A program made the translations under genes and the position numbers. Positions 423 through 63,469 of a DNA stretch of 64,000 bases are shown here, one piece after another (within the stretch, counting starts at the first letter, position 1; each line of letters starts with the position of its first letter). Source of the DNA: Nannocystis bainbridge. Its GTDB lineage: Bacteria > Myxococcota_A > Polyangia > Nannocystales > Nannocystaceae. The DNA is taken from assembly GCF_028368995.1 (NCBI RefSeq), contig NZ_JAQNDL010000001.1, positions 2,176,001-2,240,000 on the forward strand, given 5' to 3'. A model generated the notes under the pieces. It saw only the letters and a program-made list of their open reading frames with translations, had not been told where the DNA came from and did not search any database.

Positions 423-643
423 TCGCCGTGCAACGCCCGTCGCCCGCTGAAGTTTCCCGCCCCTGCACTCCGCGGCGCCAGGTCGCGCCTGTCCTGCGGC
501 CCGCGAGCTCAAAAAACAATCGCCGGCCGTGTCGCACGCCCTGCCGAAGCCTGCTGCTCCTTCGGGCATGTCCTTTCTGCCATATTCCCAGTGCACCACG
601 AGCCGTCGGGCGTCCCCTCGCGCGGGCCCGACGCGCGATCACT

Positions 644-713
644 TGACCTTTCGGACATGTCTCATCAGCCATGTCCACAGGCCCCCGCGTCATGGAACCT
701 GTCCTCCGGGACA
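644..713. repeat. Phased array of the 14-bp TGTCC-N4-GGACA palindrome (5 units, two degenerate)
   Basis: TGACCTTTCGGACA 644, TGTCTCATCAGCCA 658, TGTCCACAG.. 672, degenerate unit 686, perfect TGTCCTCCGGGACA 700; two further units at 555-582. Confidence 0.75.
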
Positions 714-1290
714 TGCGCGCACAGGTCGCCGTGCGCGCCCATGCCGAACTCGTCGAGCACCCGCTCGCCGAGCAACCCGCACCGGCCGCGCGCATCCGCC
801 GGACGTGGCCCTGTCGTCGCGGTCGTCGTGGGCGCGGGCCCGCGGCGATCGTCCCGAGCCGCACCGTGTCGGCGAGCTCACCGGTGGTGAGCGGGGCGAA
901 CCGGGCGCGGCCTGCGGTCACGAGACGGCGACGACAGCTCGCGGCCCGCGCACCACCCCACGCGCACCCAGCCAGTCGACAACACCCGGCCACAGCCACT
1001 CGCCGCGACCGCAGGGACATCTGCCTGTGGAACCAGCTCCGCAGCCCGCACTCTCCGGCGCATCCTCCGCACCCACGGGCGGAAGCGCCCCGAGCCGCCC
1101 CCGCACCGGCTGCAGCCTCGCCCGGACCGCCCGCTCCGACCGCGGACCCGTCCCCCACGAGAACCGCGCGCCCCAGCGCCTCAGCCGCTCCGGGGCCGGT
1201 CTGGGTGCGCCCGCCTACCACAAGGGGTCGTGGTCGCCGAATCACCCCGCTTCCGTGACTTGGCCGCCGGGCCGCGGTAATTCTGGATCC

Positions 1291-2247
1291 GTGACCGACC
1301 GCTCCGTCGCCTGTCGCCGGCCCGCCGCTCTGGGCCTCGTGCTCGCCGCCGCCATCGCGGCGTGCAGCGGCGTCGACGATCCAGGCGAGCTCGGCGTGGC
1401 CCCGCAGGAGTCGGGCGAGCCGGCGGCCACCTCGCGGCTGGCCCAGATCCGCGTCGTCGTCCAGCCGCCCGGCGAGTTCGCGGGTGACGAGCCGGCGCTC
1501 GAGGTCTCGGCCGTGTTCGCCCAGTACCGCGGCTACGACGAGGCCGCCGCGCGCACCCGCCTCGACCTGCCGCGGCCCCCGGCCGAGCGCATGCGTCCCG
1601 GCCACTGTGCCCCGAGCGACCAGCTGCTGGCCGCCGACGAACCTGTCTCCAAGGACAGCAGCAGCAGCGCGCGCGAGCTGATCTTGCTCGACGCCGGCAA
1701 CCTCGGCGTCACCATCGGCGAGGCCGCGATCGACGTCCCGCTGGCGCTGCTGCCCGACCTGGTGCCCAACATCTCCGGCGTCACCTACACCTACCTGGGC
1801 GACAGCCTGCCTGCCGGTGCCTGGCCGCCGGGCGAGCCGGCCCCGTCCGAGTTGGTCGTCCGCGTCGACGGCGAGGGCGACGAGCTGCCCGGCTTCACCC
1901 TGCGCCCGCGCCTGCCCGAGCCGGCCGCGCTGACCGGCAGCATCGACCGCGGTCGCGACGAGCTGCGCCTCGAGTGGCGCCCCGGCGCCCGCGAGCCGCT
2001 GGTCCTGCGCCTCGCCAGCCTGATCGGCGGCGAGCCGGTCGGCGAGGAGCTGACCTGCGTGACCCATGACGACGGCTCGTTCGTCGCCGACCTCGACGAG
2101 CTGCACGCGCTCGGCCTCGACGCCGGCCCCGGCACCGCCCTGCGCATCGCGGCCACCCGCTCCGGCCGCACCGTGTTCGACGCCGGCGAGTTCGTCGGCG
2201 CCGAAGCCGTCGTCGAGGTCCGCACCGTCACCGTGCTCCCCCCCTGA
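1291..2247 (+). CDS. Secreted lipoprotein, hypothetical
   Basis: 3' part of ORF 529..2247; GTG start followed by ...LGLVLAAAIAAC-SG lipobox. Confidence 0.75.
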   Translation: MTDRSVACRRPAALGLVLAAAIAACSGVDDPGELGVAPQESGEPAATSRLAQIRVVVQPPGEFAGDEPALEVSAVFAQYRGYDEAAARTRLDLPRPPAERMRPGHCAPSDQLLAADEPVSKDSSSSARELILLDAGNLGVTIGEAAIDVPLALLPDLVPNISGVTYTYLGDSLPAGAWPPGEPAPSELVVRVDGEGDELPGFTLRPRLPEPAALTGSIDRGRDELRLEWRPGAREPLVLRLASLIGGEPVGEELTCVTHDDGSFVADLDELHALGLDAGPGTALRIAATRSGRTVFDAGEFVGAEAVVEVRTVTVLPP

Positions 2248-2278
2248 GCCGCCGGGTCGCTCGAGCGACAGAGGGACA

Positions 2279-2348
2279 TGTCCACCCGGACATGTCCCTT
2301 TCGACATTTCTCTCACGACATGTCGATGAAGACATGTCCGATCGGCCA
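2279..2348. repeat. Phased array of the 14-bp palindrome (5 units) between convergent genes
   Basis: TGTCCACCCGGACA|TGTCCCTTTCGACA|TTTCTCTCACGACA|TGTCGATGAAGACA|TGTCCGATCGGCCA. Confidence 0.9.
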
Positions 2349-2365
2349 TCTCCTGGCCCGCGAGC

Positions 2366-4265: not shown

Positions 4266-4329
4266 ATGCCCACGATTCACCCCTCAACGGCCGAACGCGG
4301 GTGGCGAAACCCGGCCGCGCTCAAGGACA

Positions 4330-4436
4330 TGCCCGATCGGACATGCCCCAAGGGGCATGCCATCATGAACATGTCCCCCGCGCCATCTCCCCACATTCGA
4401 TCTCGCTGATTTTTAAAGGACATGTCCCGGAGGACA
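4330..4436. repeat. Phased arrays of the 14-bp palindrome (4 units at 4330-4385; perfect unit at 4423-4436)
   Basis: TGCCCGATCGGACA|TGCCCCAAGGGGCA|TGCCATCATGAACA|TGTCCCCCGCGCCA ... TGTCCCGGAGGACA. Confidence 0.85.
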
Positions 4437-4448: not shown

Positions 4449-5402
4449 TCAGCTGCCGCCGGGCGTCTTGACCAGGCGACCGATCCGCAGGTTGGGGATG
4501 AACGCCTCGGTCAGGGCCGCCGGCGTCTGGATCTTCCCGCGCATCGTGTCCTCGAGCCGGCGCGGCACCTCCGGGATCGGGGGCGGCGGCGGCGAGTCGT
4601 CGGCCGGCAACGCCGCCAGCAGCGGCGGCGGCGGCATCGTCAGCTGCGCCGCGGGCATCGGCGGCGGCGGCGGCAGGTCGGTGTACGCGTCGTACTCCTC
4701 GTGTTCCTGTTCGTGCTCGAGCTCGACCTCGAGTTCGCCGGAGATGGCGACCTGCGCCGGGCGGGACCCGAGCACCGGCTGCGCTGGCGCGAACTCGGGG
4801 ACGCGGGCCTGCGGCCGGCTCGGCTCCGCGGGCGCGCTCGCCTGCTCGTCCGCGCGGGCGAAGATCCCCGACTGCGCCGCCAGGTCGAGCTCACCGCGCA
4901 GCGCCGGCACATCGAGCCGCTCGAGCCACGCCCGGTCGACCAGGAACCGGCCGTCGAGCGGCACCAGCGTCAGCGACCCGCGCGTGATGCTGTGGAGCAG
5001 CTTGCCACCTGCGTGGTGTCGCAGGCGACGGCCGAGCTCCGCCACCGCCTCGTCGTCGTCGTCGAGCGCCCGGGTCAACGCCGACAGCACCAGCCCGAGC
5101 ACCTCGCGGGCGCGATCGAACTCGCTCTGGAGCTGCTGCTGCTCGGCGTCGGTGCGGTCGGTTCGCACCACCACCTTGGGCGTCGGCAGCGGCGGCTCGT
5201 GCTGGGCGGCGCGCAGCCGCTGGGCCAGGCCGGCCGCCACCTGCAGCTTCTTGTTCAGCTGGCGAGCCAGGCCCGCCCAGTGGTCACGCTCGTGCTGACC
5301 GGTCGCGACCGCGCTCTCGAGCTCCGCCACTCGCGCTTCGAGCTGTCGGATGTGCAGGACCTTCGCGTCGTAGCGCTGCCAGATATCACCGGAGTCCGTC
5401 AT
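4449..5402 (-). CDS. Hypothetical coiled-coil protein with Pro/Glu-rich C-terminus
   Basis: MTDSGDIWQRYDAKVLHIRQLEARVAELE... heptads; polyproline tail; coding-like codon bias begins at the ATG at 5402. Confidence 0.7.
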   Translation of the reverse strand: MTDSGDIWQRYDAKVLHIRQLEARVAELESAVATGQHERDHWAGLARQLNKKLQVAAGLAQRLRAAQHEPPLPTPKVVVRTDRTDAEQQQLQSEFDRAREVLGLVLSALTRALDDDDEAVAELGRRLRHHAGGKLLHSITRGSLTLVPLDGRFLVDRAWLERLDVPALRGELDLAAQSGIFARADEQASAPAEPSRPQARVPEFAPAQPVLGSRPAQVAISGELEVELEHEQEHEEYDAYTDLPPPPPMPAAQLTMPPPPLLAALPADDSPPPPPIPEVPRRLEDTMRGKIQTPAALTEAFIPNLRIGRLVKTPGGS

Positions 5403-6751: not shown

Positions 6752-7005
6752 CGTCCGGAGGTTTCCCGCCACCACCCCGTGATAGCGATTCCCGCCCCGC
6801 CTCGCAAAGCGCGCTCCGCGACCGACCCTCTCCGCTCGTGGACAGGCGAACGCAGTTCACTCGCGCAGACCGATCGATGCAACTGCAACCGAGGTCTCCC
6901 GGCCTCTTGACGGGCCGCGGCAGTGCCCGGGCCCGAAAGCCCCGGCCCGCCGCCCGGCGCCGGCCCGGGCCAGCCCTGCGCGGGGCGCACCGGGACTTCA
7001 GGACA

Positions 7006-7061
7006 TGTCCTTGCGGACACCTCGTCCGGGACATGTCCCGGAGGACATGTCCCGCGAGCCA
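7006..7061. repeat. Phased array of the 14-bp palindrome (4 units) just past the protease stop codon
   Basis: TGTCCTTGCGGACA|CCTCGTCCGGGACA|TGTCCCGGAGGACA|TGTCCCGCGAGCCA. Confidence 0.9.
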
Positions 7062-7065
7062 GCCC

Positions 7066-28164: not shown

Positions 28165-29094
28165 ATGGAGGGCGAGTTCTCGAGCACCACGACCTTGACC
28201 GCGGACGAGCGGCGCGAGCTGTACGCCCGCCGCGACGGTCCCGGGCTGCGCAGGTTCACGGTCCAGCTCGCCCTGCTGGCGGCCTCGGCGGCCGCCGTGG
28301 TCGCGCTCGCCGACGCCGACGCGTGGTGGTTCTGGCCGGCGTTCGCGGCCTACAGCGTACTGCTGGCGTCGATGTTCGCGCCGATGCACGAGGCCGGCCA
28401 CGGCACCGCCTTCGCCAGCAAGCAGCTCAACCGCCGGGTGTTGCAGATCGCCGCGAACCTGTCGCTGCTGCCCCCGACCGCGTTCGTCGCCTTCCACTTC
28501 GAGCACCATCGCAAGACCCACGAGGTCGGCGACCCCGAGATCCCCGGCGGCAACCTCGAGCTGGCGGCCTGGCCCAAGAACCCGATCGCGGCGCTGATCG
28601 TGCTCAGCGGGCTGCCGCTGCTGCTCGGCAAGCTGATCGTGCTGCTCACCCTGGTGGTGCCGCGCGGGCCGCAGTGGTTCGACAAGTGGCTGCCGTGGCT
28701 GCCCGCGGCCCAGCGCCCGGCGACGATCGCCGAGGCGCGGCGGATCCTCGCCGGCCTGGCCGCGCTGGCGCTGCTGGCCTGGCAGGTGTGGCCGCCGCTG
28801 GGCTGGCTGCTGGCCGGCTTGGCCGGCGCGCACGTGGTCCTCGGGCCGTACCTCGCGGCCGAGCACACCGGCATGCCGACCACCGGCGACGTGCTGGCGC
28901 GCACGCGATCGATCCGCAGCAACGCGGTCGTCAGGTGGCTGTTCTGGAACATGCCCTACCACGCCGAGCACCACGGCTGGCCCGCCGTGCCGTTCCACGC
29001 CGTGCCGGCCCTGCACCGCCGCGTCGCGCCCGGGCTGCCGCACCGCTACCGCGGGTACCTGCACGTGTACCTGGCGGCGCTGCGCGGCAGGTGA
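28165..29094 (+). CDS. Fatty-acid desaturase family protein
   Basis: MHEAGHGTAF, HFEHHRKT, AEH, WNMPYHAEHHGWPAVPFH. Confidence 0.9.
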   Translation: MEGEFSSTTTLTADERRELYARRDGPGLRRFTVQLALLAASAAAVVALADADAWWFWPAFAAYSVLLASMFAPMHEAGHGTAFASKQLNRRVLQIAANLSLLPPTAFVAFHFEHHRKTHEVGDPEIPGGNLELAAWPKNPIAALIVLSGLPLLLGKLIVLLTLVVPRGPQWFDKWLPWLPAAQRPATIAEARRILAGLAALALLAWQVWPPLGWLLAGLAGAHVVLGPYLAAEHTGMPTTGDVLARTRSIRSNAVVRWLFWNMPYHAEHHGWPAVPFHAVPALHRRVAPGLPHRYRGYLHVYLAALRGR

Positions 29095-29161
29095 CCTCGA
29101 GGACATGCCCCCTGAGGCATGTCCTAGGAACCATGTCCTATTGAGCATGTCCCGTGAGACA
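29092..29161. repeat. Phased array of the 14-bp palindrome (5 units) starting on the desaturase stop codon
   Basis: TGACCTCGAGGACA|TGCCCCCTGAGGCA|TGTCCTAGGAACCA|TGTCCTATTGAGCA|TGTCCCGTGAGACA. Confidence 0.9.
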
Positions 29162-29367
29162 TGGGATTCCTCGAGCTCGACCGAGGACGCGTCGACGCCC
29201 GGCCGGCATGTCACCTCGGGTCGTCCGGCGGCTTGCCTCGTGCGACCGCGCGGGCTCGACTGGCGTCACGTGGGCCGCAGCGCGGACGACTCATCGCTTC
29301 CCGGCCGGGTTCTACCGCGCCGCGCCTCGGCGGTCCGCCCGACCGGCCAGCGCTCAGCCTCGTGCTC

Positions 29368-29409
29368 TGTCTCGAAGAACATGTCCTCACAGACATGCTC
29401 TCGCAGGCG
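29368..29409. repeat. Phased array (3 units) abutting the ftsI stop codon
   Basis: TGTCTCGAAGAACA|TGTCCTCACAGACA|TGCTCTCGCAGGCG. Confidence 0.8.
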
Positions 29410-31497
29410 TCACTTCTTCGGCGCGAACGCGACCTGCACGACCTTGCCGCTCTCGACCTGGCCGGGGGTCACGTCTTGCGACACGGCGATGCCGGAGCCC
29501 GAGGCGCGCAGCTCGACGTGGTTGCGGCCGGCGAGGTCGAGCGCCTGCGCCAGCGTGAGGCCGGTGAAGTCGGGCATGCCGGTGGTGACCTTGGGGTGGG
29601 CCGTGCCGCTGCCGCGCTCGTCGGAGCCGGGCAGTGACGGCTCGCCGTCGATCTCGGCGAGCACCCCGAGCGCGGCCTCCATCTGCTTGGCGGCCACCAC
29701 CACCGGCTTCGGCGGCGGCGGCGTCTTGCCGTCGTCGCGCGGCACCCCGAGGTGGGTCATGATCTGCCCGCCGAGGCGGGCGAAGCTGGGGGCCGCGACG
29801 TCGTTGCCGTAGTGGGCGCCCTCGGGCACGTCGACCGACACGAGGATCACCACCCGCGGCGCGCGGGCCGGCAGCGCGCCGATGAAGCTCGAGTAGTACA
29901 TGCCGTCGGCGTAGCCCTTGGTGCCGGCCTTCTGCGCCGTCGAGGTCTTGCCGGCCACCAGGTAACCGGCGACGTGGGCGTTGTTGCCGGTGCCGAGCTC
30001 GGTGTGGACGACGTCCTCGAGCATGCGCATCACGGACTTGGCGGTCGAGCTGCGGACCAGGCGCTCGCCCTCGGGCGCGTGCTCCCACACGCTGCCGCCG
30101 CGGGCGTCGAGGATCTTCTGGACGATGGTGGGGTCGTGATAGACGCCGTCGTTGGCCAGCGCGCCGAAGGCCGCGGTCACCTGCAGCGGCGACGCGGCCA
30201 TGCCCTGGCCGAACGCGATGTTGGCCATCTGGATGTCGGACCACTTCTCCGGCGGCGCCAACAGGCCCGCGGTCGCGCCCGGCAGCTGGACCCCGGGGCG
30301 CTCGCCGAAGTGGAACTTCTTGACCCACTTCGAGAGCGTCTGCTTGCCGAGGCGGTCGGCGATCTTGGTCGTGCAGATGTTCGACGACGCCGCCAGGATC
30401 TCCGTCACCGTCAGCCACTCGGCCGCGTGCGCGTCGTGGATCGTGTTGCGCGGGGTGTACTTCCAGCGGCCCTTCTCGCAGTAGAACGTCTCGTTCTCGC
30501 GCACCGCCCCGAGCTCGAGCGCGGCCGCCACGGTCACCGCCTTGAGCGTCGAGCCGGGCTCGTAGGCGGCCTGCACGGCCAGGTTCTGGGTCTGCTGGGC
30601 CTTCTCGACCGGGTGGTTGGGGTCGAAGGTCGGCCGGTTGGCCAGGGCGAGGATCTCGCCGTTGCGCGGGTCGAGCACCAGGATCGAGGTGCCGACCGGG
30701 TTCCACTGGCGGACGAGGGTGTTGATCTCCTCCTCGACCATCGCCTGGATCGCCGAGTCGATCGTCAGCACCACCGTGTCGCCGCGCGCGACCCCGGGGT
30801 CGGGCACGCCGTCGACCAGCAGCTTCTTGCCGGCCGCGAAGTAGGCCGGCGACAGCGCCTCGCGCCCGCGCAGCTGCATGTCGAGCCCGAGCTCGACGCC
30901 AGCGGTGCCGCTGCCCTGGGCGCCGACGCGGCCGAGCACGTGCGAGGCCAGGAGCCCGCGCGGGTACACGCGCGCGGTCGACGGCTCGAACGACACGCCG
31001 GGGATGCCCTTGGCCTGCAGCGCGGTCACCTGCGCGTCGGACAGGGGCAGGCGCAGCAAGCGATAGGCCTTGTCCTTGGCGATCTCCTCGCGCAGGTAAT
31101 CGGCGCTCTCGTCGGGCTCGAGCTCCAGCACCGCCTCGACGAGCGCCTCCTCGGCCCCGCGCGCGCGCACGAGGCGGGGGTTGATGGCGATCTTGTGTAC
31201 GCGGTCGTCGACCGCCAGCGTCATGAAGTCGCGGTCGACGATCTCGCCGCGGCTGGCCGCCAGCTTGAAGCTACGCAGCTGCTGGCGGTTGCCCTGCTCG
31301 GCGTAGGCCTCGTGCTCGACGGTGGCGAGCCGGGTCGCCTTGACCCCGGCGCCGACCAGCGCCGCGCAGATCGCCGCGCCGACCAGCGACGCGCGCCGCC
31401 CGACCGCCCGCATGTCGCTCGCCATCGGCGCGGGGATCAGGTTCTTGCGCATGGTGTTGCCGCGCTTTTCGGACATGTTCGATCCGCCCTGTCTCAT
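29410..31497 (-). CDS. ftsI: Cell-division penicillin-binding protein FtsI/PBP3 with C-terminal PASTA-like domain
   Basis: RGEIVDR, EPGSTLK (SxxK), SSN, KTS, MPDFTGLTL; lies downstream of rsmH-ftsL. Confidence 0.92.
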   Translation of the reverse strand: MRQGGSNMSEKRGNTMRKNLIPAPMASDMRAVGRRASLVGAAICAALVGAGVKATRLATVEHEAYAEQGNRQQLRSFKLAASRGEIVDRDFMTLAVDDRVHKIAINPRLVRARGAEEALVEAVLELEPDESADYLREEIAKDKAYRLLRLPLSDAQVTALQAKGIPGVSFEPSTARVYPRGLLASHVLGRVGAQGSGTAGVELGLDMQLRGREALSPAYFAAGKKLLVDGVPDPGVARGDTVVLTIDSAIQAMVEEEINTLVRQWNPVGTSILVLDPRNGEILALANRPTFDPNHPVEKAQQTQNLAVQAAYEPGSTLKAVTVAAALELGAVRENETFYCEKGRWKYTPRNTIHDAHAAEWLTVTEILAASSNICTTKIADRLGKQTLSKWVKKFHFGERPGVQLPGATAGLLAPPEKWSDIQMANIAFGQGMAASPLQVTAAFGALANDGVYHDPTIVQKILDARGGSVWEHAPEGERLVRSSTAKSVMRMLEDVVHTELGTGNNAHVAGYLVAGKTSTAQKAGTKGYADGMYYSSFIGALPARAPRVVILVSVDVPEGAHYGNDVAAPSFARLGGQIMTHLGVPRDDGKTPPPPKPVVVAAKQMEAALGVLAEIDGEPSLPGSDERGSGTAHPKVTTGMPDFTGLTLAQALDLAGRNHVELRASGSGIAVSQDVTPGQVESGKVVQVAFAPKK

Positions 31498-31931
31498 CCG
31501 CCATGTCCCTTGGGACCGGTCTGATTGGACTCGTCACGCAGCCGGATCGCCTGCAGCCGGTCCGGCGTGGCCGGCACCATCTGCATGCGCCCGGCCGCCA
31601 CGTCCTCGATGTAGTCCGGGTGGCGCAGGTAGGCCCGCTCGGCCTCGAGCCGACGCTTCTCGTCGAGCAGGCGCCCGTGCTCGGCCGTCAGCTCGGCGAT
31701 GTCGGCCCCGAGCTCGAGCACCCGCGCCCGCGTCCGCACCTGGACCACGCCGGCCGCGGTCATTAGCCCGAGCGCCAGCATCAACACCAGCGGCAGCCCG
31801 GTCGGCCGGCGCGGCGGCGGCGGCGGCAGGCCGTCGTCGGCGCGCTGGAAGCCGTGCTCGAAGTTCGCCGGGGTCGCGCCGCGCCGCCCGTTGCGGCCGC
31901 GCGCGGGCGCGGTGGTGGGCGGCGGCGTCAT
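31494..31931 (-). CDS. ftsL: Cell division protein FtsL
   Basis: One TM helix plus leucine-zipper coiled coil; lies between rsmH and ftsI with ATGA overlaps. Confidence 0.8.
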   Translation of the reverse strand: MTPPPTTAPARGRNGRRGATPANFEHGFQRADDGLPPPPPRRPTGLPLVLMLALGLMTAAGVVQVRTRARVLELGADIAELTAEHGRLLDEKRRLEAERAYLRHPDYIEDVAAGRMQMVPATPDRLQAIRLRDESNQTGPKGHGG

Positions 31932-33891: not shown

Positions 33892-34541
33892 CAGACCTTA
33901 GGCACCGCATGCCCGTGCCGAACAACCTCCAGGCCCGGCCGCTGCGCGCCGTCCGCGATGCGCAGGTGTTCGCCCGGGCGCGCCTGCCCTCGCGCCACGG
34001 CGAGTTCGAGATCGTGTCGTTCATCGACGACGTCGGCCGCACGCTCGACGACGTGGCGATCGTGCGCGGCGACGTCCGCGGCCGCGTCGAGGTGCCGACG
34101 CGGATCCACTCCGAGTGCCTGACAGGCGACGTGTTCGGCTCGTTCCGCTGCGACTGCCGCGACCAGCTCGAGCTGGCGCTGCAGCGGATCGCCGGCGGCG
34201 ACGCGGGCATCATCCTGTACCTCCGCCAGGAGGGCCGCGGGATCGGCATCGCCCAGAAGATCCGCGCCTACCACCTCCAGGAGCAAGGCCTCGACACCGT
34301 CGAGGCCAACCTCCACATGGGTTTCGATGATGACCTGCGCGACTACTCGGTCGCGGCGGCGATGCTGCGCGCGCTCGAGGTCGGCTCGGTCGTGCTGCAC
34401 ACCAACAACATGCGCAAGATCGCCGGCCTGCAGCAGGGCGGGGTCGCGGTGACCCGCCGCGAGCCGCTGATCGCCGAGGCCCGCGAGCACAACCGCCGCT
34501 ACCTGGCGACCAAGCGCGACAAGAGCGGTCACCTGCTCTGA
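33888..34541 (+). CDS. ribA: GTP cyclohydrolase II
   Basis: RIHSECLTGDVFGSFRCDC, YLRQEGRGIG, DTVEAN, YLATK..KSGH. Confidence 0.96.
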   Translation: MTDLRHRMPVPNNLQARPLRAVRDAQVFARARLPSRHGEFEIVSFIDDVGRTLDDVAIVRGDVRGRVEVPTRIHSECLTGDVFGSFRCDCRDQLELALQRIAGGDAGIILYLRQEGRGIGIAQKIRAYHLQEQGLDTVEANLHMGFDDDLRDYSVAAAMLRALEVGSVVLHTNNMRKIAGLQQGGVAVTRREPLIAEAREHNRRYLATKRDKSGHLL

Positions 34542-34617
34542 GGGACATGTCTGTTCGGGCATGGCCTCTGCGCCATGTCCGATCGGACATTTCCCCGCGG
34601 ACATGCCCCATCGAACA
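34534..34617. repeat. Phased array of the 14-bp palindrome (6 units) overlapping the ribA stop codon
   Basis: TGCTCTGAGGGACA|TGTCTGTTCGGGCA|TGGCCTCTGCGCCA|TGTCCGATCGGACA|TTTCCCCGCGGACA|TGCCCCATCGAACA. Confidence 0.9.
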
Positions 34618-35337: not shown

Positions 35338-35678
35338 AGGCCCGCGACGAAGCGTCCGGCGAACCAAACAAGAAGCGGCGGAGCACGATGCTCCGCCGCG
35401 GGTCACCTCGGGCGCGATGCCGGTTCGAGTTGCGGGGGACGAGCCCCGTCAGGGGTTTCCGGCCGCGGTGGGCCGGGTGCCACGGGCGTGGCGCGCGGTC
35501 AGTCGCCGGGCTGACCAGTGGGTGACTTTCGGCGGCGCGGCGGCGCCGTCGCAGGGTCGGTCCGCGCGGGGCGAACCGGTGGAAGCGTGACTTTGCGGCC
35601 GCGATCACGCGACCGGGGGTGTCACTGCGTGCCCGCCCCGCAGAGCGGACACGGGAAGGGGCGGCTCGGCGAAGCGAG

Positions 35679-35805
35679 CCTCAGACCCCGGCAAAGGCTA
35701 GTGCGCACCTCCTGAAGAGCAGGACAGTCGAGGCGCAGCGCAAAGACGACACACACAACGATCTGCTTGGTTCATCAGCTACCTCCTTTTGCCGGTGGCC
35801 TGAGG
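35679..35805 (-). ncRNA. Candidate structured RNA whose terminal stem encloses a 25-aa ORF (35698..35775)
   Basis: 5' arm CCTCAGGCCACCGGCAAAAGG pairs with 3' arm CCTTTGCCGGGGTCTGAGG; AGGAGGT-N5-ATG; peptide MNQADRCVCRLCAAPRLSCSSGGAH. Confidence 0.45.
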
Positions 35806-35967
35806 GTGACGATCCAACCTTAGCAAGCTTGTGTGCGCCGGCAAAGAGTTGTGGCGGGCCACGCCCCTCTCGCGGCGGACCCGCGAGCAGAGGCCCGCGG
35901 AGCCGGCGCGGGAGCGGGTTTGACAGTGCGCCGCCCCGCGTGGCAAGAGCCAGGCGATGAGGTCCGC

Positions 35968-37363: not shown

Positions 37364-37787
37364 TGTCCCTTCGGCCAGACCGACGCCCGGAGAACCGGCG
37401 CTGCTCCAAGGACCTCTGCGGCGCCACGTCGCCCCCGGGTCAGCACCCGCATGGGAAGTTCGGCGCCGCTCCCTGGATCATCTCGCCGCACGCTCACCTG
37501 TCCTTTCGGGCAGCCCGTCACGCGAAGGTTGGGCGCTGACCTGACGGACATCTTCCGCGCGCCGCATTCGCCTGTCCTTTCGGGCAGCCCGCAAAGGCGC
37601 TGACCGGACGGACATTTCTCGCGCGCCGCGTTCGCCTGTCTCTTCGGGCAGCCCGCCCCGCGCGCAGGTTCGGCCCTGACCTGACGGACATCTTCCACGC
37701 GCAGCCCGCCTGTCCCTTCGGTCAGCCGCCGCGCGGACAGTCAGCGCTGACCGCCGGACCTTCTCGCCTCACATGTCTCTCGGGACA
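37364..37787. repeat. Imperfect tandem repeat (about 64-74 bp) downstream of lysA; most units carry two 14-bp palindrome variants
   Basis: TGTCCYTTCGGNCA-type units at 37364, 37499, 37573, 37637 and 37711; TGACCNGACGGACA at 37537, 37601 and 37677; TGTCTCTCGGGACA at 37774. Confidence 0.85.
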
Positions 37788-38405: not shown

Positions 38406-38503
38406 TGCCCGCAGGGACATGCCCCGAAGGGCATGTCCCTCTCGACATGTCATCGAGGACATGTCTATGAGGGCATGTCCTCGATGACATGTCCTCAGCG
38501 ACC
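38406..38503. repeat. Longest phased array of the 14-bp palindrome (7 units), filling a convergent intergenic gap
   Basis: TGCCCGCAGGGACA|TGCCCCGAAGGGCA|TGTCCCTCTCGACA|TGTCATCGAGGACA|TGTCTATGAGGGCA|TGTCCTCGATGACA|TGTCCTCAGCGACC. Confidence 0.95.
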
Positions 38504-38849: not shown

Positions 38850-38868
38850 GATGGCGCGCTCCTTCCAC

Positions 38869-38909
38869 GCGTCGTCTTGTCCTCACCGGGTACGGCGCAC
38901 CTCGTCCGG
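38869..38909 (-). promoter_or_regulatory. Guanidine-III (ykkC-III) riboswitch
   Basis: Minus strand CCGGACGAGGTGCGCCGTACCCGGTGAGGACAAGACGACGC closely matches the ykkC-III aptamer and lies directly before the GGAAGGAG RBS of sugE. Confidence 0.9.
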
Positions 38910-39061
38910 GCCCGCGAAGCGGGCGAGCTTCGGGTCAGCTTAGCCGCTCCCCCGTGGCGGGCCCGGCGGGGACGCGTGAGCCAACTCCGGCCCCCGCCGT
39001 CCCACCTGTCCTTTTGCGCAGGTCTTTCGCGCCTGGCGGCCGGGCCGCGGCGCGTGGGCGA

Positions 39062-41214: not shown

Positions 41215-42449
41215 GCATCCTTGGTGAGACGGATCCCCGTGAACGGCCACCGCGCCCGGGGCGGAAAGAAATTGCGGTAGCTGGCACGCAAATGATCCCG
41301 CGGGGAAGCGCACGAACCGCCGCGCAGCACCATCTGGTTCGACATGAACTTGCCGTTGTATTCGCCGAGCGCGCCCGCCGGCGGGTGATAGCCGGGGTAC
41401 GGCAAGTACGCGCTCGCGGTCCACTCCCACACGTCGCCGAACAGCTGCGCCGGCCGGGGCTCGGCCTGCGGCGGCGCGTCCGCGACGGTCGGGTGGAGGC
41501 GGCCCGAATCGACGAAGTTACCGGCCACCGGCGCGCCCTCGGCCGCCGCTTCCCACTCGAACTCGGTCGGCAGGCGGGCGCCGGCCCAGCGGGCGAACGC
41601 GTCGGCCTCGTAGTGCGACACGTGGACCACCGGCGCGTGCGGGTCGAGCGGGCGCGGCCCGCCGAGCGTCATCTGCCACCATGTCCCCTGGGACATGTAC
41701 CAGTAGAGCGGCGCCGTCCAGCCCTCGGCCTGCGCCTGGGCCCAGCCGTCGGCCAGCCACAGCGTGCTGCGGCGGTAGCCGCCGTCGGCCACGAACTCCG
41801 CGTACTCCGCGTTGGTCACGCAGCGCGACGCCAGCGCGTGCGGCCGCAGCAGCGTCTGGTGGCGCGGGCCCTCGTTGTCGAAATGAAAGCCCGCGCCGGC
41901 GTTGCCCACCTCGCGCAACCCGCTCGGCCCCGGGCACCAGCGCAGCGGCGCCGCCGGTCGCGACGACGGCGGCGCCGCCTCCGCCCGCAGCCCCGGCCGC
42001 AGCGGGTTCTGGGCGTACAGGTGCAGCAGGTCCATCAGGATCAGCTCCTGGTGCTGCTGCTCGTGCTCGAGCCCGAGGCGGACCCGCTCGACCAGCCACG
42101 CCGGCCCGCCGCGGGCCAGCAGCTCGAGCATCGCCGCGTCGACGTGGGTCCGGTACTGCAGCACCTCGGCCCCGGTCGGCCGCGTCAGCAGCCCGCGGCG
42201 CGGCCGGCTGAACTGCGGGCCCACCGACTCGTAATACGAGTTGAAGAGGACCTCGAACTGCGGGTGAAACGGGCGGTAGCCGGGGTCGGCCGGGCCGAGC
42301 ACGAACGTCTCGAAGAACCACGTCGTGTGCGCCAGGTGCCACTTGGCCGGGCTCGCGTCCGGCATGCTCTGGACCGCGAGGTCCTCCGCGGGCAGCCCCG
42401 CGACCAGCCCCTCCGTGGCCGCGCGCACCCGGGCGTAGGCCGCCTCCAC
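41211..42449 (-). CDS. egtB: Ergothioneine sulfoxide synthase
   Basis: QSMPDASPAKWHLAHTTWFFE, HEQQHQEL, RLPTEFEWE, GEYNGKFM. Confidence 0.95.
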   Translation of the reverse strand: MEAAYARVRAATEGLVAGLPAEDLAVQSMPDASPAKWHLAHTTWFFETFVLGPADPGYRPFHPQFEVLFNSYYESVGPQFSRPRRGLLTRPTGAEVLQYRTHVDAAMLELLARGGPAWLVERVRLGLEHEQQHQELILMDLLHLYAQNPLRPGLRAEAAPPSSRPAAPLRWCPGPSGLREVGNAGAGFHFDNEGPRHQTLLRPHALASRCVTNAEYAEFVADGGYRRSTLWLADGWAQAQAEGWTAPLYWYMSQGTWWQMTLGGPRPLDPHAPVVHVSHYEADAFARWAGARLPTEFEWEAAAEGAPVAGNFVDSGRLHPTVADAPPQAEPRPAQLFGDVWEWTASAYLPYPGYHPPAGALGEYNGKFMSNQMVLRGGSCASPRDHLRASYRNFFPPRARWPFTGIRLTKDA

Positions 42450-43427
42450 TCAGAACCTCCCGCCGAGCGCGACCCCGAAGCCCTGGCCCGAAGGACCTGC
42501 CCCCAGGTGCAGCTGACCGCGGCGGGCCGTCTTGCCCACGCCGGTGTCCTGCCGCTCGAGCGTCTTCAGCTCGGCGCGCGACGACAGGGCGTCGACCGCC
42601 ATGAACGCCGAGCCGGCCAGCCCGAGCCCGCCCGCCAGGCTGGTGACGCCGACGAAGCGCAGCGGCTCCTTGTCGCCGTACTGACCGATCAGCCACAGCG
42701 CGCTGAACACCGCCGCCCCGGCGTAGAGGGCGTAGCCGAGCCCGCGGGCCCACAGCTTGCCGCGCACGCGCAGGTCCCGGCCGGTGCTGGCGCCGCCGAT
42801 GGCGACGATCGGCGTGCCGAGCAGCGTCGTCGTCAGGCCGAGGCTGGCGTACATGAAGTGCTTCATGCCGTAGTCGCTCGGGTCGGTCTTGCCGGCGCGA
42901 CCGGCGTCGTAGAGCACGCCCATCAGCATGCCGACCGCCGAGAAGCCGACGCCGACGCCGGCGCCGACGCGGGCCCACTCCGACGGCGTCGACTCGCGGC
43001 CCTCGACGCACTCCCACGAGTTCTCGTGCACCGCCGTCACCGCCCCCAGCGGAGCCTGCTGCGCGCCGTTCTTCGGGTGCACGTAGTAGACCGCCGACTT
43101 GTCGGCGCGGGTCAGCGTCACGCACTCGCGCCCCGCGGTGCCGAGGATCACCAGCACCCGCCGCCCGGCCAGCCGCTGCCACTGCGCGTCGCTCACCGGC
43201 GCGGGGTAATAGCGCGGCATGTTGTCCGCGGCGGCCGGCGCCTCCGCGGCGGTCGCGTCACCGGCGACCGCGTGGTGGATCAGCGTGACATGACCTTCGG
43301 GCAAGGTCCGATCGGACATGTCCGAAGCGCCATCCACGATCACCGCCTCGGGCCCCTCGTAGCTGCGCAGGCCGGCGGGCGGGGTGAGGGCGAGCGACAC
43401 GACGGCGAGCGCGGCGAGCATGGCCAC
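42450..43427 (-). CDS. Exported/membrane hypothetical protein
   Basis: Signal peptide, several hydrophobic helices, C-terminal GVALGGRF. Confidence 0.65.
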   Translation of the reverse strand: MAMLAALAVVSLALTPPAGLRSYEGPEAVIVDGASDMSDRTLPEGHVTLIHHAVAGDATAAEAPAAADNMPRYYPAPVSDAQWQRLAGRRVLVILGTAGRECVTLTRADKSAVYYVHPKNGAQQAPLGAVTAVHENSWECVEGRESTPSEWARVGAGVGVGFSAVGMLMGVLYDAGRAGKTDPSDYGMKHFMYASLGLTTTLLGTPIVAIGGASTGRDLRVRGKLWARGLGYALYAGAAVFSALWLIGQYGDKEPLRFVGVTSLAGGLGLAGSAFMAVDALSSRAELKTLERQDTGVGKTARRGQLHLGAGPSGQGFGVALGGRF

Positions 43428-45730: not shown

Positions 45731-45948
45731 TGTCCCGAGGGACAGGTCGCACCGGCCGGGCCCGGCGAACGCGGCGGCCGTCTCGGCGCAGGCCCGCCGC
45801 GCCTGCGCGCGGACCATTCACCGCATCCTGTCCCGAAGGCCAGGTCGCCGGCCGGGCCCGGCGAACGCGGTGCCCTCTCGGCGCAGGCCCGCCGCGCCCG
45901 CGTGCGCCGGGGCCATCCTCCACATCCTGTCCCGAAGGCCAGGTCGCT
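45731..45948. repeat. Tandem repeat of about 98 bp (2 copies plus a partial third), each starting with the 14-bp palindrome
   Basis: TGTCCCGAGGGACA 45731; TGTCCCGAAGGCCA 45829 and 45928. Confidence 0.85.
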
Positions 45949-47439: not shown

Positions 47440-47481
47440 TGGTCGAAACGACATGTCCAAAAGCACATGTACAAAAAATCA
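47440..47481. repeat. Phased array (3 units) with A-tract spacers
   Basis: TGGTCGAAACGACA|TGTCCAAAAGCACA|TGTACAAAAAATCA. Confidence 0.75.
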
Positions 47482-52829: not shown

Positions 52830-52833
52830 CGAC

Positions 52834-54600
52834 GTGAACCCCGGCGAGACCTCCGAGTGGCAGGACCACGCCCGCCTGGCCGGCCGGCGCCGGCTGGCGC
52901 AGGCGATCGGCGAGCTCAGCTTCGAGGGGCTGCTGCACCCGCGTCCGCTCGGCGACGACCGCTGGGCGCTCGATCTGTCCGATGGGACATGTTATTCGTT
53001 CACAGGGCGGCCGAGCGCGTGGGGCGGGCTGCACGTCGAGGCCGACGGCATCACCCGCCGCGAAGGCGACGGCGACGAGCAACCGGCCGCCTCGCCGGTG
53101 CAGCTGATCCTCGACGCCCGGGCCGCGCTCGGGGTCGGCGCCGACGCGCTGGCCGAGTTCCTCGAGGAGCTCCACAACAGCCTGCTGGCCGAGACGGAGC
53201 AGTGCGCGCGCCTGGCCGAGCTGCGCGCGCCGCAGCTGGCCGCGCTGTCGGGCGCCGCGCTCGAGCAGCACCTCGACGGCCACCCCAAGCTGGTGGCGCA
53301 CCGCGGCCGCGTCGGCTGGGGCGTCGCCGATCTCGCAGCCTACGCGCCCGAGTCCGCCAGCCGCGTGCAGCTGCACTGGCTCGTCGTCGCGCCCGAGCTG
53401 GCCCGCTGCAGCGGCGCCGCCGGTCCGGGCCAGCTGCAGTTGGTCGACGAGAGCTGCGACGCCGAGGCCCGGGCCCGCCTGCTCGAGCAGCTGCACGCGC
53501 GCGCCCCCGGGCTCGCGCGCGGCGGCGTGCTGGTGCCGGTGCACCCGTGGCAATGGCAGCACCACCTGGCCGCCCAGTATATCGACGCGCTGACGCGCGG
53601 CGCGATCGTCTCGCTCGGCCGCTTCGGCGACGCCTACGCGCCGCGCCTCTCGATCCGCACCCTCGCCGACGCTTCGCGACCCGAGCGCGCCGACGTCAAG
53701 CTGGCGCTGACGATCCTCAACACCTCGTGCTGGCGCGGCCTGCCCGGCGAGCACATCGAGCAGGGCGTCGGCATCGGCGCGGCGCTGCGGCGGCGCGTCG
53801 CCGGCGATCCTCTGCTGCACGGCGTGCACGTGCTCGCCGACCTCGGCGGCGTGCACGTGCCGCAGCCCGAGTTCGAGGCCCTCGGCGCCGCGCCCTACCG
53901 CCTGCGCGAGCAGCTGGGGGCGCTGTGGCGCGAGAGCGCGACGGCTCGCCTCGGCGCCGACGAGCGCGAGGTCGCGGCCGCGGCGCTGCAGCAGACCGAC
54001 CTCCGCGGCGAGCCGCTGCTGCGCACATGGGTCGAGCAGAGCGGCGCCTCGATCACGGCGTGGTTGACCGCGCTGTTCGAGCGCACCGCGGCGCCGCTCT
54101 ATCACTTGCTGTGCCGCCACGGCATCGGCGTGATCGCCCACGGGCAGAACCTCGGGCTGGTGCTGCGCGCGGGAATGCCGACGGCGATCCTGCTGCGCGA
54201 CGTGCACGGCGACGTGCGCCGGGTGGCCGACGACCGCTTCGATCACGAGCCGGCGCTGCGCGGGCTCAAGGCGCTGCCGGCCGGCCAGATCGTGCACGAC
54301 CTCTACACCGGCTATTTCGTCAGCGTGCTGCGGTTCGTCGCGCCGCTGTGCGAGCGCAGCTTCGGCCTGCCGGAGCGCGAGTTCCTGCGGCTGCTGTCCG
54401 CGGTGCTCGCCGCCTACTGTGATTCGGTGCCGCACGAGGCGACGGCGCGCTTCGATCTGTTCCGTCCGGAGATGGAGCGGATCTGCCTCAACCGCGCCCG
54501 TCTGCGGATCGGCCACGGCGGCGGCGCCACGCGCCCGCTGCCCGCGCTCGGTCCGCCGCTGCATAACCCGTTGGTGAGGGAGGTGGACGATGAACGATGA
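52834..54600 (+). CDS. iucC: IucA/IucC-family NIS synthetase (IucC-like)
   Basis: GHPKLVAHRGRVGW, VHPWQW, SIRT, LNTS, HGQN. Confidence 0.9.
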   Translation: MNPGETSEWQDHARLAGRRRLAQAIGELSFEGLLHPRPLGDDRWALDLSDGTCYSFTGRPSAWGGLHVEADGITRREGDGDEQPAASPVQLILDARAALGVGADALAEFLEELHNSLLAETEQCARLAELRAPQLAALSGAALEQHLDGHPKLVAHRGRVGWGVADLAAYAPESASRVQLHWLVVAPELARCSGAAGPGQLQLVDESCDAEARARLLEQLHARAPGLARGGVLVPVHPWQWQHHLAAQYIDALTRGAIVSLGRFGDAYAPRLSIRTLADASRPERADVKLALTILNTSCWRGLPGEHIEQGVGIGAALRRRVAGDPLLHGVHVLADLGGVHVPQPEFEALGAAPYRLREQLGALWRESATARLGADEREVAAAALQQTDLRGEPLLRTWVEQSGASITAWLTALFERTAAPLYHLLCRHGIGVIAHGQNLGLVLRAGMPTAILLRDVHGDVRRVADDRFDHEPALRGLKALPAGQIVHDLYTGYFVSVLRFVAPLCERSFGLPEREFLRLLSAVLAAYCDSVPHEATARFDLFRPEMERICLNRARLRIGHGGGATRPLPALGPPLHNPLVREVDDER

Positions 54601-60724: not shown

Positions 60725-61582
60725 ATGCGGCTCGACAGCGTGCGCGGCAACACCCAGAGGCTCGACGGCGGCGCGATGTTCGGCAACGTCCCGCGGCCCC
60801 TGTGGCAGCGCTGGGCCCCGCCTGACGACCTCAACCGGATCTCCCTGGCCTGTCGCTGCCTGCTCGTCCGCGACGACCGCGGCCGCACGATCCTCTTCGA
60901 GGCCGGCATCGGCGCCTTCTTCGAGCCCAAGCTGCGCGAGCGCTTCGGCGTCGTCGAGTCGGAGCACGTCCTCCTCGACTCGCTGGCCGCCCTCGGCGTC
61001 GGGCCCGACGACATCGACATCGTCGTGCTCTCGCACCTCCACTTCGATCACGCCGGCGGCCTGCTCACCACCTGGTCCGAAGGACAGGCGCCGGCCCTGG
61101 TATTCCCGCGCGCCAGCTACGTCGTCGGCGAGGACGCCTGGCAGCGCGCGCTGCACCCCCACCCGCGCGACCGGGCCTCGTTCATCCCCGGCCTCACCGA
61201 CTTGCTCCTCGCCACGGGTCGGCTCGAGCGCGTGAGCGGCGACCGCAGCGAGCTGCTCGGGCCCGGCTACACCTTCACGGTCTCCAACGGTCACACACCG
61301 GGGCTGCTGCTCGCACGCATCGAGACACCGCGGGGCGCCGTCACCTTCATGGGCGATCTCGTGCCCGGCGTCCCGTGGGTCCACCTGCCGATCACCATGG
61401 GCTACGACCGCTTCCCGGAGCTCCTCATCGACGAGAAGGAGGCCCTGCTGGCCCGGATCCTCGCCGACGACGGCACCGTCTTTTACACCCACGATCCAGA
61501 TGTCGCGGCCAGCAAGCTGACCCGCGACGCCCATGGCAAGTTCACCGCGACATCCATGGTCAGCGAGCTCCACTGGGCCTGA
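60725..61582 (+). CDS. MBL-fold metallo-hydrolase (YtnP-like)
   Basis: [30 protein letters not shown]. Confidence 0.92.
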
Positions 61583-61704
61583 CACCGCTGTCACATTCGC
61601 GGTGGCAGAGGTCGGTATTTTAAGTTCGCGCCATCGTCGAGGGCGGGCGCGTCGCCCGGACACATGCCCGAGACGGCCGGCGAACCGACCGCCGCGGGGT
61701 TTCA

Positions 61705-61821
61705 TTAAGTCAGCGCAAGCAGCTTCTTCTGCAGCCTGCGGACCGAGCGCGGCGCCGTCATCAGGTAGTACACGCCGGTCAGCACGTAGAGGGGCAGCTT
61801 GGAAGCATTGGGGGGGGTCAT
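61705..61821 (-). CDS. Putative 38-aa small membrane-associated protein
   Basis: GGAG RBS; MTPPNASKLPLYVLTGVYYLMTAPRSVRRLQKKLLALT; mostly GC3 codons. Confidence 0.4.
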   Translation of the reverse strand: MTPPNASKLPLYVLTGVYYLMTAPRSVRRLQKKLLALT

Positions 61822-62056
61822 GGCACGTTCTCCGCGATAAGGTCTGCGTCTTTGTAGCGGCGGGGGGCCGCGTGTCGGATCACTCGATGTCCGACACCGT
61901 TTCGATCTCGCACATCTCGGTGCTCTCTTGCAGATCACGCACCGAGATGGCGATCCGACCTCTGCGAAACGCATCGCATTCCTGTGAGATTCCGTCGCGA
62001 CAATTTGTCCGCCCGCGGTGACGGACGGCGCCGCTGGCGGCCAATTTATCTGGCTG

Positions 62057-63469
62057 TCAGGACATGCTCGGAGAGACAGGTACTCGCGGGCGCCCGGGGA
62101 ACATCGCTTCGACCTCGCGCGCGACCGCCAGCACCCGATCCTCGCGGCCGAGCGGGCCGACCAGCTGGACCGCGATCGGCAGGCCCTCGCGGGAGCTCGC
62201 CACCGGCAGCGCCACCGCCGGCTGACCGGTGACGTTGAACGGCGCCGTGAACGCCCCGTAGACCGCGTAGGCGCGGAACACCGCCTCGCCGTCGGGTCCG
62301 CGCCACGCCCCGATCGGCGGCGGAGGTCCCACCACTGCGGGCGTCAGCACCAACTCGGCGTCACCGACCCACGCCAGCACCCGCTCGCGCAGCGCCTCGA
62401 ACGCCGCGTGGGCCAGCGCCGGCGAGTTGCGGCGACCGGCCTCGACGAGCCAGCGCGTCGCCGGCTGCAGCCGGTCCGCCCGCACCCACGGCACCTCGGA
62501 CAGGAGGCGCTGGTAGATCGGCAAGAAATCGTCGACCGACCCCCGCGCCATCTCGACCTCCTCGACGCGGTGGCCCGCGCCGGCGAGCGCCTCGCCGACG
62601 GACCGCGTCGCCGCGGCCCACTCTGGCGCGGCGGCGGCCAGCGGCGAGTCGACCGCCAGCTTGATCCGCAGGCGCGGCGACGGCTCCAGCATCTGTCCGT
62701 AAGGACATGGCGGAGGGGACAGCCAGTGCGGCCGCCCGACGGTGAGCCCGGCCATCACGTCGAGCAGCGCCGTCGCGTCGGCGACCGAGCGCGCCAGCGG
62801 CCCGCAGGTGTAGAGCAGCGTGCGGTCGTCGCGACCGAACGCGTTGGCGACCCGCCCGCGCGACGGCTTGAGGCCGACGAGGCCGCAGAACGCGGAGGGG
62901 ATCCGGATCGAGCCGGCGCCGTCGCTGCCCTGGGCCCACGGCAGCAGGCCAGCGGCGACCGCCGCGCCCGAGCCCCCGCTCGAGCCGCCGGCCGTGCGCG
63001 CCGGGTCCCACGGGTTGCGCGTCGGCGGGTGCGTGTCAGGCTCCGTCACCGGCAGCGCCCCGAGCTCCGACGTCGCCAGCTTGCCGAGCACCACGAGGCC
63101 CGCCGCGCGCAGCTTGGCCACCGTCGCGTCGTCGATCGGCGAGTACAGCGGCAGCACCCCGCGCGAGCCCATGCGGGTCCGCGAGCCGCGGACGAAATTG
63201 AGGTCCTTGACGCCGATCGGCACCCCGAGCAGGGGCGGGACCGAGTCGAGCGCGCCGCGCCGCGCCGCGCGGTCGAGCGCATCGTCGGCGGCCCGGGCCG
63301 CTCGCCGCGCCCGCGCGTCGAACACCGACACGAAGGCCGACAGCGCGGGGTTGTGCGCGGCGATACGGTCCAGGTACAGCGCGACGAGCTCCTGGCTGCG
63401 GATCTCGCGGCGCCGCAACAGGCGCGCCTGTTCCAGGCCAGACACGTGGAGGAGCTCGGCGAGCGACAT
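62057..63469 (-). CDS. Amidase-signature family amidase
   Basis: GVPIGVKD, TRNPW, GGSSGGSG, GSDGAGSIRIP, GLKPSRG. Confidence 0.95.
   Translation of the reverse strand: MSLAELLHVSGLEQARLLRRREIRSQELVALYLDRIAAHNPALSAFVSVFDARARRAARAADDALDRAARRGALDSVPPLLGVPIGVKDLNFVRGSRTRMGSRGVLPLYSPIDDATVAKLRAAGLVVLGKLATSELGALPVTEPDTHPPTRNPWDPARTAGGSSGGSGAAVAAGLLPWAQGSDGAGSIRIPSAFCGLVGLKPSRGRVANAFGRDDRTLLYTCGPLARSVADATALLDVMAGLTVGRPHWLSPPPCPYGQMLEPSPRLRIKLAVDSPLAAAAPEWAAATRSVGEALAGAGHRVEEVEMARGSVDDFLPIYQRLLSEVPWVRADRLQPATRWLVEAGRRNSPALAHAAFEALRERVLAWVGDAELVLTPAVVGPPPPIGAWRGPDGEAVFRAYAVYGAFTAPFNVTGQPAVALPVASSREGLPIAVQLVGPLGREDRVLAVAREVEAMFPGRPRVPVSPSMS

Follow-up and report, generated by a model that had tools for sequence, protein, structure and literature searches.

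A selected, phased palindrome behind stop codons across the Nannocystis bainbridge genome, with a proposed role as a transcription barrier

A 64,000-nt stretch of the Nannocystis bainbridge genome (here, the window; contig C1:2,176,001-2,240,000) carries many copies of a short palindrome, TGTCC-N4-GGACA, often stacked in arrays with an exact 14-bp period close behind stop codons. Window coordinates below are positions in this stretch, and sites are unstranded. Between 555 and 62721 there are 48 site groups comprising 94 units, of which 36 lie in tandem, 22 in convergent, and 13 in divergent intergenic regions and 23 in coding sequence. We describe the motif as a real, selected, genome-wide DNA signal that has not previously been described and propose, from its sequence and placement, what it might do. 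The wider question is by what means Rho-less bacteria that have few U-tract terminators bring transcription to an end.

Genes were called by us from dicodon usage, with reliable stops and approximate starts (8,308 genes in the genome, 83% coding). In the window, seven units fill a convergent gap at 38406..38503, leaving 2 and 7 nt to the stops on either side, and 4 to 5 units stand there in 5/5 orthologues. In another convergent gap, a Mur ligase gene has five units 17 nt behind its stop (2279..2348, perfect copy at 2279), and a trypsin-family gene has five units 4 nt behind its own (6992..7061, perfect copies at 7006 and 7034; 1 to 2 units in 4/4 anchored orthologues). At 4316..4436, 5 units (4316-4385) plus 2 (4409-4436, perfect copy at 4423) are found 12 to 63 nt behind the stop of the gene at 4449-5402 (-), with counterpart arrays in 2/2 anchored orthologues, and 6 units overlap the GTP cyclohydrolase II stop codon (34534..34617, perfect copy at 34576; array present in 1/1 anchored orthologue). 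The first three letters of the 5-unit array at 29092..29161 are the TGA stop of a desaturase gene, and this array is kept in 5/5 orthologues with different spacers; 2 good units follow at 29368..29395, 14 nt behind the ftsI stop. One shared array fills this gap (29092-29395) in 4/5 relatives, while in N. bainbridge a 200-bp insert separates two. Eight site groups, several of them within a local 64-bp tandem repeat, lie behind lysA (37364..37787), and a 99-bp tandem repeat that lies in a convergent gap carries three single sites (45731..45941; the perfect copy at 45731 is 3 nt behind a stop). Elsewhere, a weak 5-unit array spans the ftsL stop and the ftsI start within a presumed operon (31462..31531), and coding sequence holds perfect single sites at 41682..41695 and, in an IucA/IucC gene, at 52976..52989, two units in an amidase gene (62694..62721, the first perfect), and 3 units at 43291..43332 in the coding sequence 42450-43427 (-). 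A loose cluster of 2 + 2 + 1 units at 555..713 (perfect copy at 700) is divergent intergenic, an exception to the gene-end rule, and a 3-unit A/T-rich array lies in a divergent region at 47440..47481.

A first-pass annotation of the window had claimed at least 10 perfect copies; all 10 are present, with 0.03 expected from 100 dinucleotide shuffles. The genome scanned (11.05 Mb, 5 contigs [C1 to C5], 72% GC) contains 1,987 perfect copies, and each of 15 other spacer lengths gives 0 to 19. A matrix scan returned 11,344 sites of at least 14 bits, compared with 5 to 66 for five column-shuffled matrices, and defined the complete site as a 20-bp dyad, RCM-TGTCC-N4-GGACA-KGY, whose spacer centre is A/T enriched (47 to 51% A+T). 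Sites cover 1.6% of the genome. The enrichment withstands a codon-aware background, given that the interiors of coding sequences hold 701 perfect sites versus 10 to 26 after synonymous shuffling, and 3,575 matrix sites versus 172 to 198. The matrix, the phasing, and the cross-species comparison bear out the earlier suggestion of an undescribed, selected site with two-fold symmetry. The literature searched (subscription journals and supplements were outside its scope) yielded no earlier account of the motif, the nearest pattern matching only at TGT-N8-ACA; the motif's likeness to the p53 decamer GGACATGTCC is a coincidence.

The period is equally distinct. As the annotation had anticipated, CATG autocorrelation peaks at 14 (3,736), 28, 42, 56, and 70 over a background of ~100 to 300. 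The junction between arrayed units is CATG in 4,321/5,612 cases, and ~35% of unit flanks are of the CCTG type instead. The outer 3 bp of each arrayed site come from the adjoining unit, so arrayed sites overlap by 6 bp. For the 11 arrays listed at the outset, the 14-bp phase held and the edges needed correction: unit 4 of 644-713, unit 3 of 29368-29409, and unit 1 of the array at 43277 are poor (6, 5, and 4 mismatches among 10 arm positions, respectively), and the arrays at 4330, 7006, and 31462 have one unit more than claimed. Genome-wide, with chaining that bridges one weak unit, there are 4,243 groups of one unit, 1,548 of 2, 714 of 3, 247 of 4, 396 of 5, 218 of 6, 88 of 7, 19 of 8, and 11 of at least 9. 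The second mode at 5 to 6 units persists where at least 250 bp is free (32, 75, 53, 20, and 5 groups of 4, 5, 6, 7, and 8 units, respectively). A further idea, that three units (42 bp) make four helical turns, finds faint support, units three apart being alike at 4.70 of 10 positions versus 4.38 to 4.51. A unique 21-unit array (C3:1237890-1238183; L081:9891-10184) becomes more A/T-rich with distance from the stop codon. We rejected it as an autoregulatory site, its neighbours being YbjQ and pyridoxal phosphate enzyme genes.

Units mostly differ in their spacers, although identical adjacent spacers (189 of 6,344 pairs versus 89 expected) indicate that some arrays have grown by unit slippage, which the annotation had discounted. 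Arrays are not copy families, since an array's closest match among the others has a median identity of 73%, reaching at least 90% in only 9/614 arrays, and a 12-bp flank is shared at most 5 times among 1,781 single intergenic sites. This low identity, the rarity of shared flanks, the want of a Y1_Tnp match, and the placement of arrays behind core genes, fixed in position across species, make it very improbable that the motif is a mobile or recombination element, whether REPIN or MITE copies, retrotransposed pieces of multicopy single-stranded DNA (msDNA), or attC-like cassette sites. Such an origin could draw on the 200-bp insert at 29092-29395, on five reverse transcriptase matches in the genome, and on the dispersed msDNA-like repeats reported for N. 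exedens (PMC6868368); site patterns around the five matches are ordinary. A gene-cassette version of the idea was rejected, since it is core genes that the arrays follow and atypical islands have fewer of them.

The first-pass annotation overlooked the main organising feature of the motif, which is that sites lie directly behind stop codons. Site density per kb is 12.2 in convergent, 3.6 in tandem, and 1.1 in divergent intergenic regions and 0.46 in coding sequence. Arrays of 4 to 7 units begin a median of 5 to 10 nt behind the stop, and the TGA often supplies the first letters of the array. In convergent gaps of at least 300 bp, which are promoter-free, density drops ~6-fold within 200 nt of the stop, a decay to which uncalled small genes could contribute and for which relaxed constraint alone is an insufficient explanation. 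Arrays also prefer head-on genes, with leading strands assigned via GC skew, dnaA, and parS. In long convergent gaps with one array, that array sits at the head-on (lagging-strand) gene in 86 cases versus 40 (p = 5e-5); it sits at whichever gene scores higher on the expression proxy in 79 versus 47. Behind tandem genes, a site follows 390/1,273 on the lagging strand versus 249/1,158 on the leading strand. The leading strand holds 49.5% of called genes, that is, there is no leading-strand bias genome-wide.

The annotation had favoured a centromere, nucleoid-occlusion, or macrodomain mark, to which we now assign virtually no chance. The dyad geometry would suit such a mark, and the terminus contig has a ~1.5-fold higher density and most of the longest arrays, including the 21-unit one. 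However, sites occur on all 5 contigs at 84 to 134 per 100 kb, with 40 lying no more than 20 kb from the origin on either side and 32 around the dif candidate, and ordinary segregation components exist: four ordinary parS sites adjoin dnaA, and ParB is present.

The motif occurs in three genera, which make up 19/59 genomes of the family. A strict pattern was positive in 10/10 congeners and in 2/30 other genomes, with one match each. Under a relaxed pattern, matches per genome number 224 to 2,129 in the first genus (g1), 35 to 102 in the second (g2), and 49 to 173 in the third (g4), compared with 0 to 8 in the other 40/59 family genomes and 0 to 14 in the other 242/251 genomes of the class. In a quick tree, two of these genera group as a single clade (support of 93). 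Genomes of g2 and g4 carry 14 to 18 sites per 100 kb, mostly as singles, and phased pairs are rare, with an incipient gene-end bias in one genome (G259). The rare strong sites in motif-negative genomes had no neighbouring gene common to the 14 loci, and a de novo search for other gene-end palindromes in three genomes (G019, G013, and G024) found none that was clear in ~40 regions each.

Across five congeners, arrays remain at the same gene ends while their spacers drift. Identity at site positions 1 to 7 is 0.91, 0.94, 0.65, 0.83, 0.75, 0.46, and 0.50, respectively, over the 88 site-genome pairs that aligned for 59 sites of the window; pairs that did not align were dropped. Within coding arms, 92% of A/T third-codon bases are kept (n = 145), versus 35% outside sites (n = 3,189). 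Among 2,500 sampled genes, 90% of the positions at which the amino acids permit a site of at least 23 bits are occupied, and permissive positions themselves number 0.159 per kb versus 0.021 for shuffled proteins and 0.024 for motif-negative ones (~7-fold). The sites have reshaped protein sequences, overriding codon and amino acid choice.

The filling of nearly all permissive coding positions and the reshaping of proteins are also what molecular drive would produce, if biased uptake, recombination, or methylation-directed repair wrote the word wherever it was tolerated, as with DNA-uptake sequences or HIP1, and gene-end arrays were a later co-option. The graded density across genera and the prevalence of CATG junctions fit this explanation, and uptake sequences likewise gather at gene ends (PMC5217627, PMC13714241). 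Drive does not predict exact 14-bp stacking, a mode at 5 to 6 units, the head-on bias, or low density in the centres of promoter-free gaps, and the CCTG-type flanks depart from CATG; we consider it unlikely.

Several tests separate a DNA site from an RNA one. The matrix is symmetric when oriented by the transcribed strand, and there is no tetraloop bias among 2,199 sites (GNRA, 130 sense and 127 antisense; UUCG, 100 and 89). G-U outnumbers C-A by 198:43 behind leading genes and is outnumbered 106:164 behind lagging genes, a reversal with replichore that marks the excess as mutational skew. The motif behaves as a double-stranded DNA site. An RNA 3'-end element, in which the transcribed array is folded or bound as RNA and either shields the mRNA or becomes a target of RNase III cleavage, is accordingly improbable, though its placement matches that of the REP and TRIT elements (PMC3733652, PMC3152330). 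Convergent arrays do fold ~3 kcal/mol better than shuffles (-32.0 versus -28.8 to -29.3, n = 358), tandem arrays reach -29.8 versus -28.1 for within-array shuffles (p = 4e-5), and intergenic sites show a slight excess of symmetric arm changes. Yet sense and antisense strands fold alike (p = 0.19), no sense-strand loop or G-U preference survives control for replichore, and arm complementarity within units barely exceeds that of random pairs (0.41/0.60/0.60 versus 0.41/0.59/0.59). Furthermore, a 5-bp stem selected at thousands of coding positions is a poor fit to a 3'-end function.

The evidence for a double-stranded site would also serve for a nucleoid-protein lattice with a topological role, in which dimers constrain or partition supercoils at the points where transcription units finish and encounter replication forks, and polymerase is not stopped. 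The convergent and head-on preferences suit such a lattice, as do a frequency of about one site group per 2 kb and the poverty of atypical islands in sites (7 versus 19 to 23 per 20 kb); moreover, CdbA is a sequence-specific myxobacterial nucleoid protein with little effect on transcription (PMC7156744). We judge this fairly unlikely, in that arrays in long gaps hug a stop codon and not the gap middle, spacing is clumped (coefficient of variation, 1.28), and the three rRNA operons contain no sites. Few tRNA calls (10/104) have a downstream site; ordinary U-tract hairpins stand at the ends of most tRNAs and of the ribosomal-protein operon. Among the tRNA genes, more than 20 are arrayed at C2:2556665-2559233, and smaller runs of Leu, Cys, and Ser tRNAs occur elsewhere.

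Our best reading of the sequence is that a cooperative protein lattice acts as a transcription barrier at gene ends, to which we give somewhat less than an even chance. Its components differ in strength. The earlier suggestion of a dimeric protein that binds cooperatively agrees with the symmetric, phased site, and a protein probably binds the motif; whether the lattice, once bound, works as a barrier is a closer call that we lean slightly toward. An abundant dimeric protein would read the 20-bp dyad, one dimer per site, and because neighbouring dyads overlap by 6 bp, dimers would sit at 14-bp intervals and form a short cooperative lattice of 5 to 6. Single intragenic sites would be weak obstacles, passed by ribosome-pushed RNA polymerase. 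Past the stop codon, a polymerase without a ribosome would meet the lattice, stall, and be released, plausibly by Mfd; the mRNA would end there, and read-through, antisense, and head-on transcription would be curbed in a Rho-less lineage. Known roadblocks at LacI, CcpA, and CodY offer a likeness, in that a bound protein stalls polymerase, Mfd removes the polymerase, and a trailing ribosome helps passage, with LacI roadblocks mostly ended by Mfd and eased by the ribosome (PMC4132739). However, each of these precedents is a single regulatory operator and not a system set at gene ends throughout a genome.

The termination context is consistent with this. Rho was above the cut-off in 0/25 Nannocystaceae genomes (G000 to G024), compared with 12/16 other members of the class, its RNA-binding domain was found in 0/5 family genomes, and a tblastn search of the N. 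bainbridge genome for Rho returned weak ATPase matches only. Among 12 Myxococcota in a published Rho survey, only Haliangium is listed as Rho-less (PMC11347177). Mfd is present in 5/5 family genomes. U-tract terminators number 439 versus 264 in controls across 5,507 3' regions, an excess equivalent to ~3% of mRNA ends, and behind convergent arrays there is no excess (58 versus 58 in controls, 811 regions). In a Rho-less cyanobacterium, canonical ends were reported at only 22% of transcription units (PMC13289151).

Several observations weigh against a barrier that ends transcripts. Arrays frequently overlap the stop codon, with an offset of -3 the commonest, which a hard roadblock would not permit without help from the ribosome. 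RNA data matched with a G007 orthologue comprised contigs of 18 mixed-community runs, each with less than half of the query words, and the 4 runs aligned in detail displayed no transcript ends, a result that is neutral for the barrier. Behind genes followed by gaps of >100 bp, at least 3 units are found in just 29% of convergent and 12% of tandem cases, and the depletion of sites in highly expressed genes may reflect protein constraint. The array at the ftsL-ftsI junction (31462..31531) and the intragenic array at 43291..43332 are each conserved in 5/5 orthologues. U-tract terminators are equally scarce in five motif-negative genomes (16 versus 10 in controls, 164 regions) and number 0/39 in G019. 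Because Rho loss is family-wide and U-tracts are scarce even where the motif is absent, arrays are not required for Rho-less life, and this weakens a simple Rho-replacement story.

As to what might read the motif, small proteins with a high-expression codon signature include a stand-alone Fis-like HTH_8 family of 66 to 82 aa, which is the best candidate, although we would sooner bet against this tentative assignment than for it. There are 11 copies in N. bainbridge (HTH_8 score of 27.1 bits, cut-off of 22), among them those at C2:2,991,539-2,991,757 and C1:1,320,087-1,320,287, and 3 to 14 in 19/19 motif-positive genomes. Of the 40 motif-negative genomes, 37 (including ones of 11 to 15 Mb) have 1 copy, 2 have 2, and 1 has 3, and no copy turned up in 200 genomes from other families. 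The A/T-rich centre and the TG/CA steps of the dyad would suit helix-turn-helix reading. One genome with approximately four tandem matches in all (G109) has a 3-unit array 330 to 360 bp upstream of a Fis-like gene; upstream motif sites occur at some Fis-like paralogues only. The recognition helix is invariant across copies, as would be expected if dosage, not specificity, had been raised. Against the candidate, the helix is the same in motif-negative genera. The promoter of the ancestral Fis-like gene has its own conserved palindrome, ATGGTG-N4-CACCAT, which is not enriched, and an extra HU/IHF paralogue (C5:217,084-217,377) tracks the same genera (4 to 5 copies in 17/19 versus 2 to 3 in 40/40). 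With two motif genera in one clade, the copy-number correlation may represent a single event, and a tree of the Fis-like family (55 columns) is mostly unresolved. The ATGGTG-N4-CACCAT palindrome, at C2:2992032 in N. bainbridge, is kept upstream of the ancestral gene in most family members.

Other readers were considered and rejected. No site of at least 10 bits lies upstream of 30/30 lexA genes, most of which have a GTTCAG-type box, and motif sites lie upstream of just 1/10 recA genes, which removes LexA, whose SOS box has CTGT-N8-ACAG geometry. A winged-helix, nucleoid-like family with five paralogues in N. bainbridge varies from 0 to 10 copies unrelated to the motif and is present in 56/59 family genomes. 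Its members, the protein at C3:1107326-1107877 (L184) and four paralogues, combine an N-terminal helical part, a basic linker, and a C-terminal winged helix and resemble nucleoid proteins. A 65-aa histone-fold-like protein (C1:1377114-1377311; L185:4114-4311, -) also has the high-expression codon signature, with Pfam matches below the cut-off.

In its full form, the proposal would be that an expanded Fis-like dimer family polymerises at a 14-bp pitch on the 5 to 6 sites behind stops, occupies thousands of single intragenic sites, and with Mfd stops ribosome-uncoupled polymerases, a third bacterial termination route that stands in for Rho and has an effect strong enough to rewrite the proteome. 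We regard this complete version as doubtful.

The motif's placement recalls REP and TRIT, its saturation of coding DNA recalls DUS and HIP1, and its geometry recalls the site of a nucleoid protein; it fails a defining test of each. HIP1 of cyanobacteria is, as here, a highly iterated palindrome written into the coding DNA of a Rho-less lineage. It is an ungapped octamer, linked to a methyltransferase site and evenly spread, whereas the Nannocystis motif is a gapped 20-bp dyad, phased, with a 25-fold gene-end bias (12.2 versus 0.46 per kb). DNA-uptake sequences (DUS/USS) are, like the Nannocystis motif, accommodated in proteins. They also occur about once per kb, within genes and at gene ends (PMC5217627). 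Unlike the Nannocystis word, which is self-reverse-complementary, stacks 5 to 6 deep, and shows no U-tract excess, they are non-palindromic and pair into a stem ahead of a U-tract. Fis reads a 15-bp G-N13-C box. CdbA of Myxococcus xanthus, a dimer or tetramer that is small and abundant, has hundreds to thousands of partly intergenic sites (PMC7156744), but the CdbA site is a direct repeat separated by 4 bp, whereas the Nannocystis arms are inverted; neither Fis nor CdbA is known to have been described in phased gene-end arrays. REP/BIME elements are abundant lineage-specific palindromes behind genes, mostly convergent or tandem ones, that at times supply the stop codon (PMC3733652), and E. coli REP325 is described in a recent report as both terminator and stabiliser (10.64898/2026.03.23.713779). 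In contrast to REP/BIME, the motif has no GTAG or CGTC tag, the matrix flanks being RCM and KGY, and shows no copy families or RNA-pairing signature but degenerate units in exact 14-bp phase and thousands of selected coding sites. There were 0 matches to the RAYT (Y1_Tnp) transposase in N. bainbridge, the only genome searched (90% complete). The TRIT of Mycobacterium is likewise a genus-level palindrome, tight at stops and bidirectional, whose GC-rich host genome has few canonical terminators (PMC3152330). It differs in having 147 copies of one long RNA hairpin, probably an RNase III substrate (PMC13714241), and Mycobacterium has Rho; the Nannocystis motif comprises ~11,000 short dyads with free spacers.

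A whole GC-rich family appears to live without Rho, and one culturable genus in it marks gene ends with a defined, easily mutated lattice for which a candidate protein can be named, making the termination question directly testable. Under the alternatives too, this is a signal that overrides codon and amino acid choice, and the low-density sister genera show how the motif arose.

Other features of the window are of separate interest. Three Mur ligase genes, ftsI, ftsL, rsmH, and mraY are dispersed among unrelated genes between 2366 and 60712, and no mraZ was called ahead of rsmH in the window. The RsmH protein is nearest to those of Nannocystaceae, and one protein has a 95%-identical homologue assigned to Nannocystis sp. 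An IucA/IucC siderophore cluster that includes a lysine/ornithine monooxygenase occupies 50124-57729, and a Guanidine-III riboswitch lies ahead of an SMR transporter gene at 38866-38929 (-). Upstream of lysA, a conserved non-coding stretch (35370-35900, -), alignable in 4 genomes, has a U-tract terminator at its end and no match in Rfam. Its orthologue in one relative (G007) has a contig depth of 183 to 875 in three RNA runs from two studies, versus ~2 to 20 elsewhere, and we consider the stretch a candidate abundant RNA of no known family.

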